A DNA stretch of 64,000 nt from Gemmatimonadales bacterium (GTDB taxonomy: Bacteria > Gemmatimonadota > Gemmatimonadetes > Gemmatimonadales > GWC2-71-9), in contig DASQIZ010000069.1 of assembly GCA_035631315.1 (NCBI GenBank), positions 409 through 64,408 on the forward strand, read 5' to 3'. Under the pieces are notes generated by a model that searched no databases, was not told the origin of the DNA, and saw only the letters and a list, made by a program, of their open reading frames with translations. The position numbers and the translations under genes are program-made. Shown piece by piece: positions 41,806 to 48,025 of the stretch (within the stretch, counting starts at the first letter, position 1; each line of letters begins with the position of its first letter).

Positions 41806-41823
41806 CCACAGGAAGCATGAGTC

Positions 41824-41831
41824 TATATATT
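41824..41831. promoter_or_regulatory. AT-rich TATATATT box in the 35-bp icd / small-ORF divergent gap (possible shared -10 element)
   Basis: It is the only AT-rich octamer in an otherwise GC-rich region. It lies 10 nt upstream of ATG 41841 and ~19 nt upstream of the icd ATG on the other strand. Confidence 0.25.
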
Positions 41832-41840
41832 CCCCTACCG

Positions 41841-42206
41841 ATGCCGCAACGACGGTCGCCGCTTCTCGCGCTGATCCTGACCCTGGCCCTGGTGGCGTAC
41901 CCCGCCACGATGCCTCTGGCCATGGCCGCCGAAGTGCCGGCGTCCATGCCGATGTCGATGGATGGGCACACCCCGTGCCCTCACGCACATCAGCCCGCGC
42001 ACCATCACCACGCCATCAGCACGTGTTGCGCGGGTGCCTGCGGCACCTGCCCCATCATCTCCGTCTCCGCAGGCGTTCCCCCCCGGATCGGCCCTTCCGC
42101 CCGGGTGATGGTGTTCCAGAACGACCTCCCCGCGTCGCCTGAACAGTCTGCCGTTCGTCGTCTCCCCTATTCCATCGGTCCTCCTCCCGCTTCCAGTCTC
42201 GCCTAG
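41841..42206 (+). CDS. secreted Met/His/Cys-rich small protein (DUF2946-like, putative copper-binding)
   Basis: Signal-like [29 protein letters not shown], then [22 protein letters not shown] and [12 protein letters not shown]. High GC3 in this frame; lies directly upstream of the TonB receptor. Confidence 0.5.
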
Positions 42207-42279
42207 CACACCCACAACTGGGCCGTCTGGACTCCGGGACCGCGCGCTCGCGCTCCCGCTGACTTGCGTGAGGACACAC

Positions 42280-44280
42280 ATGAAGAAGACGTTGCTGAGC
42301 CTGGGCACGCTGTGCGCGTGCGCCACGTTCTCTTTGCCGGCGCAACAGAGCGACACGCTCCATGTGCACGGTGACAGCCTCAATCACCACCCCATCACCC
42401 TTGACGCGATCACGGTGACGGCGGCGCCCGTCAAACCGCACGAGCCCGCGACGACGGTGAAGATCTCGCCGTCCGTCATTCAGCAGACGCCGGCCACCGA
42501 CGCCTACGACCTGCTCCGGCAGGTCTCGGGGATCGAGGTGCACGAGCAGGGCCAGGGGCCCGGTTTCGCGTCGGACGCGTCGGTGCGCGGCTTTTCGTCG
42601 GACCACTCGACCGACATCGCGCTCTGGGTGGATGGCGTGCCGAACAACGAGCCCGTGAACGGACACGCCGAGGGCTACAACGACTGGAATCTGCTCTTTC
42701 CGGAGGCGATCTCGGAGATCGACGTCCTCAAAGGACCCACGAGTGCGGTGTACGGCAACTTCGCCTTCGCCGGCGTGGTGAACGTCCAGACGCTCGAGCG
42801 CACCGACGGAACGTCTCTCTATCTGGATCCCGGCTCGTACGGTCATTGGGGTGGAACGCTGCTCACGGGCTACGACCGGGGAACGAATGGCGGAGTCTTC
42901 GGCCTGCGCGGTGAGCATGAGGATGGCTGGCGGCCCAACAGCGCCTACGACCTCGGCCAGGCGCACGCGCGCGTGGTTCAGGGGCTCTCGTCCGTGACGA
43001 CGCTCGACGCCGGCGTCGAGCTGTACTCCACCCAGTGGAAATCCCCGGGCTTCCTCTCCGACAGCGCGTTCCAGGCCAGTGATTTCGGCCGGGTCGAGAA
43101 CCCGACCGACGGTGGCTACAAGCATCGCGCGCAGGAACGTGTGAGCTTCCGCGTGCTGGCGGGTCCCTCACTGCTCTGGCGGACGACGTTCTACTCCACA
43201 CAAGGCCGCTGGCAGCTCTACCTCACCATTCCTCCGGAGTCTGGTGGCGGCGAAGGCACGGGCAGTCAGACCGAGGAAGAGGACAAGCGGTACGGCCTGG
43301 GCATGACGAGCGCGCTGACCTGGTATCTCGATCGCGCGGAGATCACCGTGGGCACCGAAACGCGGTACGATCACTCGCGGTATGAAAACTGGTTCACGAC
43401 GGACCGCGTTCGCGATTCCGCCCAGACGCTGGTGAATGCGCATCAGGGCTCGGCCGCGCTCTTCGCCCAATCGAGCGAGGACCTCGGCCCGCACTTCCGC
43501 CTGTCCCTCGGTGGCCGGATCGATTTCCAGAATACCGGCGCAACACCGGACAGCGGCCCGGCCGCGAGTCACGGCAAGGCCATCTTCTCACCGAAGCTCG
43601 GCCTGCTCTATCACCTCCCGGTGGCGGGTGACGTCTACGCCAACGTGTCTCGCGGGTTCCGGCAGACCGACGGCGTGATCGAAAACCCATACCTGCCGTT
43701 CATTACGGTCTGGGCGTACGAGGCAGGCTTCAAGGTGGACGGGAGCGTCGTGAACGCGAGCATCGCGCTCTTTCGGAACGACGTGAGCAATGAGCAGACC
43801 TTCAATCCCATCCTCCTCACCAGCGTGAGCGGAGGCTCGAGCCGGCGCCAAGGCGTCGAGGTGGATTTCCTCGCGCGTCTGGCACCGTCGGTGCACCTCA
43901 CCGGTGACTGGACGGTCACAGACGCGAAGTACGACCACCTGATCACCGAGACCGGTGACACGCTGAACGGCGCGCGCGTCTTCAATACGGCGAAGTTCAC
44001 CGGCATCTCGGCGCTCGAAGTGGCGCCCGACAGCGCCCCCTGGCGGCTGCGGCTGTCGACGAACGTCGTCGGTCCATACAGCCCCCTTGATGAGCCGGGC
44101 GTGACTCTCCCGACCTATGCGCTGTTCCATCTGTCTGGTGGGCTACGGGTCGGGCGTTCCGAGCTGCAGGTGGGAGTCCGGAATCTCTTGAACCACGAGT
44201 ATCCGGAGCTGGAAGCGGGCGGGTTTGTGACGCCGGGTGAGCCGAGGTCCGTTTTCGGGACGATCCGCTACACGTTCTAA
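42280..44280 (+). CDS. TonB-dependent outer-membrane receptor (metal/chelate type suspected)
   Basis: Signal MKKTLLSLGTLCACATFSLPAQ, plug (DAITVTA..VSGIEV..VRGF..), barrel, and terminal ..GTIRYTF. There is a His run HVHGDSLNHH at the mature N-terminus. Confidence 0.85.
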   Translation: MKKTLLSLGTLCACATFSLPAQQSDTLHVHGDSLNHHPITLDAITVTAAPVKPHEPATTVKISPSVIQQTPATDAYDLLRQVSGIEVHEQGQGPGFASDASVRGFSSDHSTDIALWVDGVPNNEPVNGHAEGYNDWNLLFPEAISEIDVLKGPTSAVYGNFAFAGVVNVQTLERTDGTSLYLDPGSYGHWGGTLLTGYDRGTNGGVFGLRGEHEDGWRPNSAYDLGQAHARVVQGLSSVTTLDAGVELYSTQWKSPGFLSDSAFQASDFGRVENPTDGGYKHRAQERVSFRVLAGPSLLWRTTFYSTQGRWQLYLTIPPESGGGEGTGSQTEEEDKRYGLGMTSALTWYLDRAEITVGTETRYDHSRYENWFTTDRVRDSAQTLVNAHQGSAALFAQSSEDLGPHFRLSLGGRIDFQNTGATPDSGPAASHGKAIFSPKLGLLYHLPVAGDVYANVSRGFRQTDGVIENPYLPFITVWAYEAGFKVDGSVVNASIALFRNDVSNEQTFNPILLTSVSGGSSRRQGVEVDFLARLAPSVHLTGDWTVTDAKYDHLITETGDTLNGARVFNTAKFTGISALEVAPDSAPWRLRLSTNVVGPYSPLDEPGVTLPTYALFHLSGGLRVGRSELQVGVRNLLNHEYPELEAGGFVTPGEPRSVFGTIRYTF

Positions 44281-44291
44281 GCTTCGCGGCG

Positions 44292-44389
44292 AACAGCGCC
44301 GGGCCCTTCCGTCGTCTGCCGTGCGCGTTCAGGATCAAATCGGACCCCGTGAAAGGCGCACAGAGGCCGACTCCGGGCCCGGCGCTGTT
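44292..44389. terminator. perfect 15-bp inverted repeat (AACAGCGCCGGGCCC / GGGCCCGGCGCTGTT) spanning the convergent gene gap
   Basis: Arms at 44292..44306 and 44375..44389, 68 nt apart, with partial inner complementarity. They fill the gap between the TBDR stop (44280) and the B2-like stop (44396). Confidence 0.4.
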
Positions 44390-44395
44390 TACGTC

Positions 44396-44911
44396 TTAGC
44401 GAGTTGCCTCAAGCGGTTCAGGAAACCGGGCAATTGGCGTGTGGACTGCTGCATGGTCCTCGTCAGCTTCCAAGTATGGTCTGTCGCTCGATGTCAGCCA
44501 CGCGTGGGCGCTCACGTCGCCACCCCCACGAACGCCGATCCACAACTGAACTGGCCTGCCGGCGTGCCGCAGGAGCGCGTACAGCACCACGGCGCGCCGG
44601 AGGCAGGTTCGCCGCCAGGGCCACGGGAGTGCATTGAGGATCTTGTCGACCCACACGGCGAGTGCCTGGTCATCAAGAGACACCGAAGCCGGCGAGCTTG
44701 CCGAGATCAGCGGGAGGAGGCGGGACAGCGAGAAGATTTCGAGCAGCGGTGGCGCTGCGAGGGCGACGAGTAGTGCCCGGAGGCGCCAGACCGGCGGGAG
44801 CGTCAGTGCTCCGCGACGGGTGCGGGCTTCAGCGTCTTGAGCAGATCGACGGCGTGGTACCCGTTCAGGTCCGCAATGTAGAGCGAGTCGCCGTAGTTCA
44901 CGGTGGGCCAC
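44396..44911 (-). CDS. orphan lasso-peptide-type B2 protein homologue (Transglut_core3-like cysteine protease)
   Basis: ..WPWRRTCLRRAVVLYALLRHAGRPVQLWIGVR....SAHAWLT....YLEADED shows the Cys/His/Asp order and context typical of B2/McjB-C-terminal-domain proteins. The start is unresolved (GTG 44911, CTG 44806 or GTG 44683). Confidence 0.55.
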   Translation of the reverse strand: MAHRELRRLALHCGPERVPRRRSAQDAEARTRRGALTLPPVWRLRALLVALAAPPLLEIFSLSRLLPLISASSPASVSLDDQALAVWVDKILNALPWPWRRTCLRRAVVLYALLRHAGRPVQLWIGVRGGGDVSAHAWLTSSDRPYLEADEDHAAVHTPIARFPEPLEATR

Positions 44912-45837
44912 CGCTCTGGGTGATCGGGCACGAAGAGCGCCATCATCTCGCCCATCACGTCCCGCAGCGTGTCCCTGGTCGGATTCTCGTATGTCGCAAT
45001 CAGTCGATACGGATGCCCGGCATGGATTCTCAAGCCCCGGTCCCACAGCGCGAGGACATGGAACGGGAGCTCCTTGATCTCGCCCGAATCGCCGAGGACC
45101 GCATTGGTCTGCACCAGGACCTTGCCGGTCTCCGCATCTTCGAGCCGAACTCCCCGGCCATAGTCATGCAGGTGACCACCTGCGCCCAGGAGCCACCCTG
45201 AGAGCGGGAACGTAATGATCGCGGACTTCTCGTGGCGGCCGGGCGGCACATCGTAGGTGTTCGACTGACCGTAGTGCGCGTTCACGTCCAGGTTCACCGG
45301 GAACGTGGACAGTGGCTGTGGCAATTCGTTCGCCGGCAACCACAGGAGGTTGATCCGGAGATAGACGCCGTGCTGCGCGGTGGTCCCGCCGTTGTGCCAC
45401 ATGATGTACAGCGCGAGTCGCTGGCCCGGAGACAACGGCGTCCCGACCGACGCGGGAGCTACCACCGCCGCCGGCGTCAGCCCCGCCGCCGCCATCCGCT
45501 CGGCCACCGGATCGAAGAGCGTGCGGCGATCGAGGTTGATCAGGGTGAAGTGATGGAGCAGATCGCGCGGGAGCGGCTTGCCGTGCGCGTCGATCACCTC
45601 CGACTCGAATCCACGGAACCAACCCTTCACGGGCCAGGCGAACGCCTGCGCCAAGGTGTCGGGCATCATCGCATCCATCGACATGCCTTCCATCGGCGGC
45701 ATCGGCTCCAGGTCGAACGGACCGGCGACGACCACCACACGGTGATGTTTCTCGTCGAGGGTCACGCCCGGCTTCGGCGCCTGCGCGGACGCCGTGGCGC
45801 CCGCGAGCAGCAGTCCGATGGTCAGGAGACGACGCAT
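44803..45837 (-). CDS. secreted Met-rich protein, paralogue 1, with a PHM/DBH-like copper-ligand motif pattern
   Basis: Signal MRRLLTIGLLLAGATASAQA. Met-rich LEPMPPMEGMSMDAMMPD. HH95-96 (DLLHHFTL), H148, H222xH224 (GGHLHDYG), M295/298/299 (VMGEMMALF). The CDS call is solid; the function is inference. Confidence 0.5.
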   Translation of the reverse strand: MRRLLTIGLLLAGATASAQAPKPGVTLDEKHHRVVVVAGPFDLEPMPPMEGMSMDAMMPDTLAQAFAWPVKGWFRGFESEVIDAHGKPLPRDLLHHFTLINLDRRTLFDPVAERMAAAGLTPAAVVAPASVGTPLSPGQRLALYIMWHNGGTTAQHGVYLRINLLWLPANELPQPLSTFPVNLDVNAHYGQSNTYDVPPGRHEKSAIITFPLSGWLLGAGGHLHDYGRGVRLEDAETGKVLVQTNAVLGDSGEIKELPFHVLALWDRGLRIHAGHPYRLIATYENPTRDTLRDVMGEMMALFVPDHPERWPTVNYGDSLYIADLNGYHAVDLLKTLKPAPVAEH

Positions 45838-45838
45838 G

Positions 45839-46888
45839 CTAGCGACGGCTCCCTTGCATCGCGGCTCGGGAGGCCTGCGTCAGCGAGTCGGGCAACGTGG
45901 TGATGCCGTATGTCGCGAGGTCTGCCCAGAGATCTTTGCTCGCGTAGTCCATCTTCGGCCACTTCGAGAGGTCATCCGGCGCAAAGATCGCCATGATCTC
46001 GCCCATGGCTTCCGACAACGTGTCCTTCGTGGTGTTGTCGTATGCGGCGGTCATCGTGTAGGGATGATCGGCCTCGATGTGCAATCCCTGCCCGGTCACC
46101 GCGAAGAGTTTCCGCGTCATCCCGAGCATCTGTCCGGCCGAGTCGAGTACCGGGCGCAGCTCGAAGAGCACCTTCCCCGTCACGGAGTCCTGGAGCTTAA
46201 TGTAGGAGCCGTACTCGTGGAGGTGGCCACCGGCGCCGAGCATCCGTCCGGAAATCGGGAAGCGGAACGTGCGTGTGCGCTCGGTCCTGCCGGGGGGCAC
46301 GGGATACATGTTGTCCGCACCCGGGAAGAGGTCCACATCCATCACCACGGGGAGTGCCGAGGTGGGGGGCGGTTGCATGTTCGCCGGCATATAGAGAAGG
46401 GTGAGCTTGACGTACACCCCCTTCACGGTATCGGGGTGACTATTGAACCACATCATGTACACACCCATCCGGGTCCCGCGCGTGAGCGGAGCGCCGATCG
46501 ACTTGGGCGCGACGATGTCTTCGTTCTGGTAACGTGCCGAGGCGAGACGTTCGGCGAAAGCGTCAAAGAGCGTGCGGCGGTCGAAGTTGAGAAGAGTGAA
46601 ATGGTGGATCAGGTCGCGCGGCATGTCGCCGCCGGCGCCATTGATGGCCCTCACGTGGAAGCCGTAGAACCACCCCTGCTCCGGCCAGACGAAATACGAC
46701 GCCATCTCGCCCATGTGGTCCATGGACATGTCCATCCCCATCATCTCCATCCGGTGCCCCATCGGCGGCAGCGTGTAGGGTCCGGCGGTGATGGTGATGG
46801 TGTGGTGCTTCCGGTCGACGACGACTCCGGTCTTGATGGAGTCCGTCGCGGGAGCTAGGAGGGTCAGCGCAGCAAGTAGTGGCAGCAT
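45839..46888 (-). CDS. secreted Met-rich protein, paralogue 2, with a PHM/DBH-like copper-ligand motif pattern
   Basis: Alignable over its full length with paralogue 1. PPMGHRMEMMGMDMSMDHMGEM; HH95-96 (DLIHHFTL), H151, H222xH224 (GGHLHEYG), M295/299 (AMGEIMAIF). Its stop is 1 nt from the paralogue 1 start. Confidence 0.5.
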   Translation of the reverse strand: MLPLLAALTLLAPATDSIKTGVVVDRKHHTITITAGPYTLPPMGHRMEMMGMDMSMDHMGEMASYFVWPEQGWFYGFHVRAINGAGGDMPRDLIHHFTLLNFDRRTLFDAFAERLASARYQNEDIVAPKSIGAPLTRGTRMGVYMMWFNSHPDTVKGVYVKLTLLYMPANMQPPPTSALPVVMDVDLFPGADNMYPVPPGRTERTRTFRFPISGRMLGAGGHLHEYGSYIKLQDSVTGKVLFELRPVLDSAGQMLGMTRKLFAVTGQGLHIEADHPYTMTAAYDNTTKDTLSEAMGEIMAIFAPDDLSKWPKMDYASKDLWADLATYGITTLPDSLTQASRAAMQGSRR

Positions 46889-47017: not shown

Positions 47018-47839
47018 TCAGGTCGTCTGGCTCAGCTGCACGCAGCGGCCCAGGAGTACGGGATCGCCAAAGGCGGTGCCATTACCGTCCGTGAAGGCTG
47101 CGAAGATCCATGGGTTTCCCCCCACCCCCCCGAGGACCGGTTGCTTCGGGAACGAGAAGTCCATGCCCGCCGGAAGAATCGTCATGGTCTGACTCCGCAC
47201 CGCGGAATGCGTCAGCTTCACGTTGTTGCTGAAGATCATCTGCATGCCCAGCCCTTCGAACGCCATGTCGGCATCCATGCTGATGAAGGGACCGGGATTG
47301 TTGTTGCACTCGGAGACCGCGAAGTCCGCGGAGACGTCGGCGCGCGGGTCTTGCGCGGAGGCAAAGTCGAGGCGCGAGCCCTGCACGCAGCGCCCCACAA
47401 AGATCGCGTCGCTTGCCGGCGCGCCGCTCGCGTCGATGAACTGCACCCAGATAAAGGGGTTGCCACCCACGCCGCCGAGCACCGGCTGCTTTGGGATGAC
47501 GATGTCCGTGCCCGCCGGCTGCAGAACGGTCTCGACATCCTTGTCCACCGTATACGTGTGGGTGTCCTTCAGATTGTTGCTGAAGAGCATGTCGACGCCG
47601 AACCCCGCCAACGCTGCGGTGCCGGAGAGCGTGATCTGCGGGCCGGGACTGTTGCTGCAGCCATCGATCGTGAGCGCGAAGTTCACGGGGACGGCAACTC
47701 CAGTGAGGCTGACATGCGGCAAGGACGACACGTTGCTCAGCGTAGACGTGCGGCTGGGGGCGGTTGGCAGGGCCGAATGCGGATTTTCACACGCGGCCAG
47801 CAGCAACACCCCAACTCCGAGATACAGGGTCCTCAACAT
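47018..47839 (-). CDS. lipoprotein with two tandem ~100-115 aa repeats of an unrecognised domain
   Basis: Lipobox LLLAAC. Start at ATG 47839 with GGGAGGA upstream. Repeat motifs: C-(S/N)N(S/N)PGP .. FSNN(L/V)K..TH .. PKQPVLGGVGGNP(F/W)I .. GRCVQ. Confidence 0.7.
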   Translation of the reverse strand: MLRTLYLGVGVLLLAACENPHSALPTAPSRTSTLSNVSSLPHVSLTGVAVPVNFALTIDGCSNSPGPQITLSGTAALAGFGVDMLFSNNLKDTHTYTVDKDVETVLQPAGTDIVIPKQPVLGGVGGNPFIWVQFIDASGAPASDAIFVGRCVQGSRLDFASAQDPRADVSADFAVSECNNNPGPFISMDADMAFEGLGMQMIFSNNVKLTHSAVRSQTMTILPAGMDFSFPKQPVLGGVGGNPWIFAAFTDGNGTAFGDPVLLGRCVQLSQTT

Positions 47840-48025
47840 TGGTTCCTCCCAAGTGGTGTGGTCCGTCACGGGACGCACCGCCGTGGGGGGCAATCGGCAT
47901 GCCTAGGGAAATACCTCCGAGTATTCCGCCTAACGCGCCGACGCATCGCGCGCACGCCACGGGGCAGCGCGGCAGCAGACGCGCTGCGGCGTTCTCAGAG
48001 AAATGGGTCAGACGTCCGAGTGGGG

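Follow-up and report, generated by a model that had tools for sequence, protein, structure and literature searches.

What keeps a lasso-type leader peptidase gene in a stretch of DNA from which every gene that usually accompanies it is missing? The question is raised by 64,000 nucleotides from a Gemmatimonadales bacterium (contig DASQIZ010000069.1; this whole stretch is called the window below), in which a minus-strand open frame closed by a TAA at 44396-44398 ends in a B2-type cysteine peptidase domain. We consider it moderately probable that the gene encodes a live, stand-alone B2-type peptidase, the remnant of a cassette of five genes (precursor, HprK-like kinase, PqqD, B2 and the nucleotidyltransferase NTP_transf_5), and that it is kept by purifying selection.

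A lone B2-type peptidase gene

The frame has a listed start at GTG 45046 and would then encode 216 amino acids. Only its last 136 codons or so match anything, and this family-matched part starts right behind the TGA (44803-44805) that closes the upstream gene, one of two genes resembling peptidylglycine alpha-hydroxylating monooxygenase (PHM). Counted from a CTG at 44806 to the TAA, the B2 gene occupies 44396..44806 on the minus strand, that is 136 codons. An earlier note on this DNA had assigned it to the Transglut_core3 (B2) family, and profile searches bore this out: the protein matched PF13471 with 55.6 bits (E 6e-15; curated cut-off 26 bits) and NCBIfam NF033537 (lasso_biosyn_B2) with 61.5 bits (E 1e-16; cut-off 33 bits), the latter over positions 4-132 of 132 of the model (129 positions). 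Among 5.8 billion proteins searched, 41 relatives came up. All have PF13471, and their lengths are 124-147 aa save for three short calls; the few that carried a name were all from Gemmatimonadales. No solved structure was found among the homologues by sequence. The AlphaFold2 model (alignment A2) reached a predicted local distance difference test score (pLDDT) of 88.7 and a predicted TM score of 0.85, and Foldseek comparison with the PDB gave weak matches, the best of them to the transglutaminase-like cysteine proteases 3isr, TglA, TgpA and LapG. The model begins with a helix at residues 5-24 (pLDDT about 90). Its reading as a signal peptide was rejected, as the helix lies inside the Pfam and NCBIfam matches and packs into the model; because it belongs to the fold, the protein is left without a signal peptide.

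The presumed nucleophile is Cys68 (codon TGC, 44603..44605, minus strand) in the motif WRRTCLRR. It is followed by His101 (CAC, 44504..44506, minus strand) in AHAWL and by Glu113 (GAA, 44468..44470, minus strand) in PYLE, the presumed third residue of the triad, 12 residues past the histidine. Each of the three is invariant in 47 of 47 homologues. The residues invariant in these 47 B2 sequences, and also in alignments A1 and A2, are L60, P61, P63, W64, T67, C68, L69, R71, G83, G91, V92, A100, H101, A102, W103, L104 and E113. The triad as first proposed, with an Asp 14 to 16 residues past the histidine, stands in one part and falls in another. The Cys68-His101 spacing of 33 was found as described, whereas D115 (His+14) and D117 (His+16) vary among orthologues and the invariant acid is Glu113 at His+12. 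In McjB the histidine and the aspartate (H182 and D194) are spaced by 12 as well. The window B2 differs in having Glu as third residue, McjB being described as Cys-His-Asp, which is as far as the source bears out that triad (PMC11420955). The loop just before the catalytic histidine carries a short tandem expansion (SAVSAVSAVPAVSAH) in one orphan relative (locus L092), and in the window it is 6 residues shorter than in two others (L001, L008); the loop therefore tolerates changes of length.

Compared with the split lasso B2 proteins (BsfB2, FusB, PadeB2 and the C-terminal domain of McjB; NF033537/PF13471, MEROPS C96), the window B2 shares the above-threshold score, a length of about 135 aa, and the order of N-terminal helices, then Cys, His and acid (spacings 33 and 12); its predicted fold may resemble that of transglutaminase-like cysteine proteases. 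Its closest relatives adjoin a PqqD-type RRE (RiPP recognition element, RiPPs being peptides made by the ribosome and modified after translation) and a precursor with the lasso leader motif. It differs in that RRE, precursor and cyclase are missing within 64 kb, in its non-canonical start codon, and in its place as last cistron behind two secreted copper-enzyme-like genes.

The absence of partners was examined over all six frames of the window, with profiles of the precursor, HprK-like kinase, PqqD RRE and NTP_transf_5 built from related loci. The SGGxDS PP-loop motif, a signature of the Asn-synthetase-like lasso cyclases, did not occur, and the Asn-synthase-like protein of a related cassette locus (L005) had no match (best E 0.12). 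The PqqD RRE profile gave a best E of 0.32, with nothing in tblastn at E < 0.01, and the precursor profile a best E of 0.2; a regular expression for the lasso leader motif found nothing. Taken over the precursor, the HprK-like kinase, PqqD, NTP_transf_5 and the Asn-synthase-like protein, tblastn and profiles gave best E values of 0.12-1.3 in the window. A hidden cyclase, RRE or precursor was accordingly discarded, and the description of the gene as an orphan holds for the window and extends to the kinase and the nucleotidyltransferase. The B2 gene is present in a single copy. By its sequence and conserved residues, the gene at 44396-44806 is a member of the B2 family, and it lies outside any lasso cluster.

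Probable descent from a five-gene cassette

The partners missing from the window were found at the same site in two related Gemmatimonadales loci, L086 and L010 (4194-7091 and 2394-5631 of these loci, recognized by gene order and families), where the whole cassette lies between the PHM-like pair and a convergent TonB receptor gene. L086 reads cupredoxin-like gene, two PHM-like genes, 34-aa open reading frame (ORF), 304-aa HprK-like kinase, PqqD, B2 and NTP_transf_5, and continues with the convergent receptor, isocitrate dehydrogenase and leucyl aminopeptidase. The flanks of the window mirror it: aminopeptidase, isocitrate dehydrogenase, small protein, receptor, B2, PHM1 and PHM2. The two B2 proteins are 57% identical. 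L010 has the same five genes, with two copies of the precursor, and by tblastn its cassette genes are 49-84% identical to those of L086. With the L086 proteins as queries, tblastn recovered the full set in L010, L003, L005, L087 and L089, and in the window, L001, L002 and L006-L009 the B2 alone; no remnants of cassette genes were found in the further orphan loci of our survey. Of the five genes, then, the window carries B2 only, and the syntenic L086 and L010 carry all.

This survey of B2 contexts covered 64 loci. In about 40 of them (L003, L005, L087, L089, L101-L138), B2 lies within the series precursor, HprK, PqqD, B2, nucleotidyltransferase. The order PHM2-PHM1-B2 was seen in the window, in a 100%-identical metagenome contig (L094), and in L001/2, L006, L008, L092 and L095, and the order PHM2-PHM1-TMEM175-B2 in L007, L009, L093 and L096-L100; PHM2-PHM1-(...)-B2 is kept in all related loci. 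The contigs of orphan-bearing metagenome-assembled genomes include DATNDQ010000187, DATBCM010000394, DATEGY010000309 and DATMOQ010000039. In a neighbour-joining tree of 47 B2 sequences, the orphans of the PHM locus formed one clade, sister to L010 and L086 and nested among cassette B2s. This nesting indicates that the cassette came first and was cut down to B2 in one ancestor. As judged from these comparisons, the window B2 is the sole survivor of a five-gene cassette that is present at the same site in relatives.

Two short relatives that might have been decayed fragments proved otherwise: P0041 (79 aa) comes from L092, where the B2 frame is open over its full length and has the same junction as the window, and P0039 (98 aa) comes from a cassette locus, L091. 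Elsewhere in the survey, L135 (743-2607) holds an independent orphan B2 of 141 aa (PF13471, 70 bits) downstream of a Peptidase_M48 gene, whose stop is overlapped by the B2 ATG; this 8.5-kb locus is without kinase, RRE and nucleotidyltransferase. Stranded B2 genes are therefore not peculiar to the PHM locus.

In the window, the TGA of PHM1 overlaps, in a CTGA (44803..44806, minus strand), a CTG at the position where orthologues have Met. The same CTGA was present in every orphan locus whose junction was examined (L001/2, L006, L008, L092, L095 and the TMEM175 type) save L093 and L097, which instead have an ATG shortly past the TMEM175 stop. It was also found in five intact cassettes, L010 and, independently, L104, L106, L112 and L117. 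An overlap of the form xTGA is the rule at most loci examined at this junction, most cassettes having ATGA, GTGA or TTGA at the PqqD stop.

The TMEM175 (DUF1211) gene encodes a channel-like protein of 189 aa between PHM1 and B2 (L007 1589-2158, L009 2791-3360, L093 6420-6989, and L096-L100). Except in L093 and L097, its TGA overlaps the CTG of B2, just as the PqqD stop overlaps the B2 start in cassettes. In L009, PHM1 ends in GAGCAC TGA, and the TMEM175 gene ends 588 nt downstream in GTCCAC TGA, overlapping the B2 CTG; the repeats that flank the segment are GAGCACTGA and GTCCACTGA. When the TMEM175 gene was cut out in silico from L009 or L007, the product was collinear with the window junction GAGCACTGACGCTCC. 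Given this match, a microhomology deletion in the TMEM175 type is the simplest origin of the window type: the 588-nt gene, still in place in sister orphan loci, would have been lost between two CACTGA repeats, leaving the present junction. We had also considered that the gap of about 590 nt between PHM1 and B2 in L007 and L009 might hold remnants of PqqD or HprK, as similar "IES..*" ends suggested; the gap is an intact TMEM175 gene. A PHM1-B2 fusion by frameshifting was discarded too: the stop is not preceded by a slippery sequence, related loci have another gene upstream (TMEM175 or PqqD), and PHM1 is secreted.

The ancestral cassette itself has the marks of lasso-type biosynthesis. Eight precursors have in common M-K-K-x-F-V-x-P-x-L-x-E-E-A-S-L-x-x-L-T-L, behind which come 8-18 variable residues. 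Counted from the TL, the leader has F-17, P-14, L-12 and T-2, a spacing that agrees with the YxxPxL / Thr-2 lasso leader rule used in the Bsf study (PMC10368454). In its order K, B1, B2, N the cassette agrees with the kinase-type lasso clusters (bsf, paeninodin; A, K, B1, B2, N, C, D), and L086, L010 and the roughly 40 cassette loci share with these clusters the succession of precursor, HprK-like kinase, B1, B2 and nucleotidyltransferase. They differ in that all cassette loci with enough flank, save L005, lack an adjacent cyclase; the window has lost everything but B2. L005/L110 is the only cassette with an adjacent Asn-synthase-like gene and an ABC exporter, and no cyclase-type SGGxDS protein was found in the 17 other cassette loci checked (3.9-20 kb). 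Most precursor cores are also without Asp or Glu at positions 7-9.

With the cyclase mostly absent and the cores mostly without a ring-forming Asp or Glu, the cassette resembles the linear polyphosphorylated peptide (LPP) clusters of Bacillota, which are cyclase-less and use a signal-peptidase-like enzyme (Popov et al. 2026; PMC13381572). Both have an RRE as well as an HprK-like kinase and an NTP transferase, and no macrolactam cyclase, and LPP precursors likewise combine a lasso-like leader motif with variable C-termini; the Gemmatimonadales cassette uses B2 where the LPP clusters use the signal-peptidase-like enzyme (PMC13381572). The window itself contains no LPP core gene. By this analogy, the cassette may be a B2-dependent counterpart of the Bacillota linear polyphosphorylated peptides.

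Translation start and selection

Between the PHM1 stop and codon 42, the window has no ATG, GTG or TTG, and, as the earlier note had pointed out, none where orthologues begin. All four starts that it listed are in the sequence: GTG 45046, GTG 44911 (a 109-nt overlap with PHM1), CTG 44806 (within the CTGA) and GTG 44683. Among these, CTG 44806 proved the best supported. It stands in the Met column of orthologues (P0009, P0016 and P0024 have Met at exactly this column), it lies in a conserved overlap, and a GGAG is found two bases upstream. The 31 codons that begin with it, upstream of any canonical start (44714..44806, minus strand; LTLPPVWRLRALLVALAAPPLLEIFSLSRLL), are coding-like. They fall within the PF13471 match, and their ratio of nonsynonymous to synonymous differences per site (pN/pS) was 0.23-0.62 when read in the B2 frame, against 0.93 or more in either of the others.

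A start at GTG 44911, giving a 35-aa Arg-rich extension over PHM1, or at GTG 44683, giving 95 aa without the first two helices, would have the merit of a canonical, in-frame codon, and in orthologues gene callers do choose canonical starts downstream (P0001 to P0004, 124-132 aa; P0041, 79 aa). We nevertheless regard either as quite unlikely. GTG 44911 is not conserved, being CTG in L001 and L008, and the frame of L006 closes 27 codons upstream of the junction, without a canonical start in the interval. The first canonical codon downstream differs from species to species (+5, +8, +13, +16 and, in the window, +41 codons), and a start there would skip codons that are under purifying selection and encode a confidently predicted helix of the Pfam domain. 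Orphan B2 genes are in fact consistently mis-annotated by gene callers, with products of 79-132 aa, and the short calls, such as P0041, arise because the canonical start is missing. By termination-reinitiation coupling, as the conserved arrangement suggests, translation of B2 most likely begins at CTG 44806 or very close to it. Initiation at this CTG would be coupled to the PHM1 stop through the CTGA overlap, and the arrangement would descend from an ATGA in which, ancestrally, the PqqD stop and the B2 start overlapped.

Whether a gene with such a start is still a working gene was judged from its substitutions. By the Nei-Gojobori method (NG86), the ratio of nonsynonymous to synonymous substitution rates (dN/dS) among orphan B2 genes was 0.10-0.29; the least saturated pair, L001-L008, had a dS of 0.49 and an omega of 0.21, and the cassette pair L010-L086 a B2 dN/dS of 0.26. 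With the dS of a neighbour gene as denominator, the ratio for B2 was still about 0.25. On the window branch, 48 synonymous changes at 86 sites stood against 25 nonsynonymous changes at 226 sites, a ratio of 0.20, like those of L001, L008 and L092.

Several points weigh against a live, selected peptidase. The canonical start codon is absent, and CTG initiation is inefficient in bacteria where measured. Synonymous divergence is near saturation for several pairs, and B2 dN relative to PHM1 dN is roughly twofold higher in the orphan comparisons than between L010 and L086. The G+C content at third codon positions (GC3) of the window B2 is 0.74, against 0.84-0.85 in its neighbours; orphan B2 genes generally lie 0.08-0.12 under their neighbours, whereas in cassettes the B2 GC3 equals that of its neighbours. 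This lowering may point to relaxed codon selection or weak expression. The residue W7, which 36 of 36 cassette B2s share, has been replaced in the orphans of the TMEM175 type; A14, L27 and R81 are likewise relaxed in orphans. Finally, characterised split B2s need their B1 (the RRE), and the window has no RRE in 64 kb; BsfB2 did not cleave without BsfB1 (PMC10368454).

These points would fit a dead or dying relic, a B2 frame unexpressed for lack of a start and of partners, in which disabling mutations have not yet accumulated. The stretch from the PHM1 stop to codon 42 free of ATG, GTG and TTG, the loss of every partner gene, the dependence of B2 enzymes on B1 and the lowered GC3 would all be explained, and an open frame as such says little at 66% GC, where long open frames are common (the window has many spurious long ORFs). 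Yet the substitutions on the window branch show a strong bias to synonymous ones, at least 11 distinct orphan loci with pairwise dS from 0.5 to above 1 have kept the frame intact, all core and catalytic residues are invariant, and the CTGA junction recurs in intact cassettes, where B2 is presumably needed. A relic is therefore unlikely. From these sequence comparisons, the balance favours a maintained protein, possibly a weakly expressed one.

Neighbouring genes and possible roles

The two PHM-like genes form a co-directional row with B2. Paralogue 2 (45839..46888, minus strand, 349 aa) is the first cistron, and paralogue 1 (44803..45837, minus strand, 344 aa) the one whose stop overlaps the B2 start; they are 43% identical. 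The family has no Pfam match and is characterised by an invariant HH...H...HxH...M, a Sec signal and an N-terminal Met-rich motif. It has more than 674 homologues, of which the few named and all 80 GTDB loci fetched are from Gemmatimonadales or Gemmatimonadota, mostly with a single copy per locus. The PHM-like label given to these neighbours was upheld by the invariant histidines and methionine and by structure: the AlphaFold2 model of paralogue 1 has a pLDDT of 85, and its top 30 Foldseek matches in the PDB are peptidylglycine alpha-hydroxylating monooxygenase and dopamine beta-hydroxylase (E down to 5e-9). On this model, the pair probably represents periplasmic two-copper monooxygenases.

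The right-hand border is the convergent TonB-dependent receptor gene (42268..44280, plus strand; Plug and TonB_dep_Rec_b-barrel), which adjoins B2 or NTP_transf_5 in L001, L007-L010, L086 and L093-L097, and is absent in L092. Directly upstream of it lies the gene of a 129-aa protein (41817-42206, plus strand; weak DUF6153 match) with a hydrophobic N-terminus and a stretch rich in Met, His and Cys. With the PHM-like pair and the cupredoxin-like gene of L086, this protein makes the neighbourhood look copper-related. Between the convergent stops of B2 and receptor, a long hairpin of 120 nt with a 15-bp perfect outer stem (44281..44400) has a minimum free energy of -69.6 kcal/mol (z -5.3; 0 of 200 shuffles fold as well). 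It probably marks the transcript ends; a simple terminator scan does not call it because it has no T-run. Beyond paralogue 2 lies a 291-aa lipoprotein-like ORF (47018-47893, minus strand) without Pfam match and with an internal duplication, its two halves having in common FSNN.K.TH ... PKQPVLGGVGGNP(F/W)I ... GRCVQ.

Among the possible roles named in the earlier note is that of a protease for products of these genes, either the Met-rich PHM-like paralogues or the Cys/His-rich protein of 129 aa encoded at 41817; B2 would then have been recruited to process them. In the orphan clade B2 indeed always lies downstream of the PHM pair, in the window type it is translationally coupled to PHM1, and in L092, where the receptor has been replaced, PHM2-PHM1-B2 persists. 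We nevertheless find this role very unlikely. In L086 and L010 the PHM pair and the receptor have the full cassette between them, and the adjacency seen in orphans was inherited from one ancestral locus. Because this adjacency was made by deletions, it is no evidence of function. About half of the orphan loci have a TMEM175 gene between PHM1 and B2, and a count of co-occurrence gave 75 of 80 PHM-like loci (GTDB species genomes) without B2. The PHM-like proteins carry Sec signal peptides and the 129-aa protein a signal-peptide or membrane-type N-terminus, whereas B2 enzymes act in the cytoplasm and this one has no signal peptide. Nor does the window contain a lasso-type leader motif.

What the surviving enzyme does may be approached from its conserved chemistry. 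As all residues of peptidase chemistry are retained, it most likely still cleaves peptides, as predicted from its sequence. Under our preferred reading, of a live peptidase left over from the cassette, it would still act on peptides behind a lasso-type leader (FxxPxL...T-2), and the substrate and any needed RRE would be encoded outside the window, unless B2 has become RRE-independent; an unlinked substrate was the third option of the earlier note. A literature search on orphan B2 proteins yielded nothing usable. A farther-reaching possibility, to which we assign only a small chance, is that an RRE-independent B2 has acquired a new, non-RiPP substrate and is kept by selection in a periplasmic copper-enzyme operon, as its last cistron, translated from the conserved CTG by coupling. 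If true, this would be the first lasso-type leader peptidase known outside the maturation of peptide natural products.

Returning to the remnant peptidase as we read it, the finding bears on the use of PF13471 as a query or marker family in lasso genome-mining papers: a hit may be the long-lived survivor of a vanished cassette, and an orphan hit is not to be taken for a hidden cluster or a mis-assembly. The locus also offers a comparative-genomics case of a conserved CTG start within a 4-nt stop-start overlap. If the ancestral cassette is what it resembles, its lack of a cyclase would carry the concept of linear phosphorylated peptides over to Gemmatimonadota, B2 being the peptidase. For the B2 family itself, purifying selection on a member with no RRE nearby suggests that such enzymes either use their partners in trans or have an RRE-independent activity.

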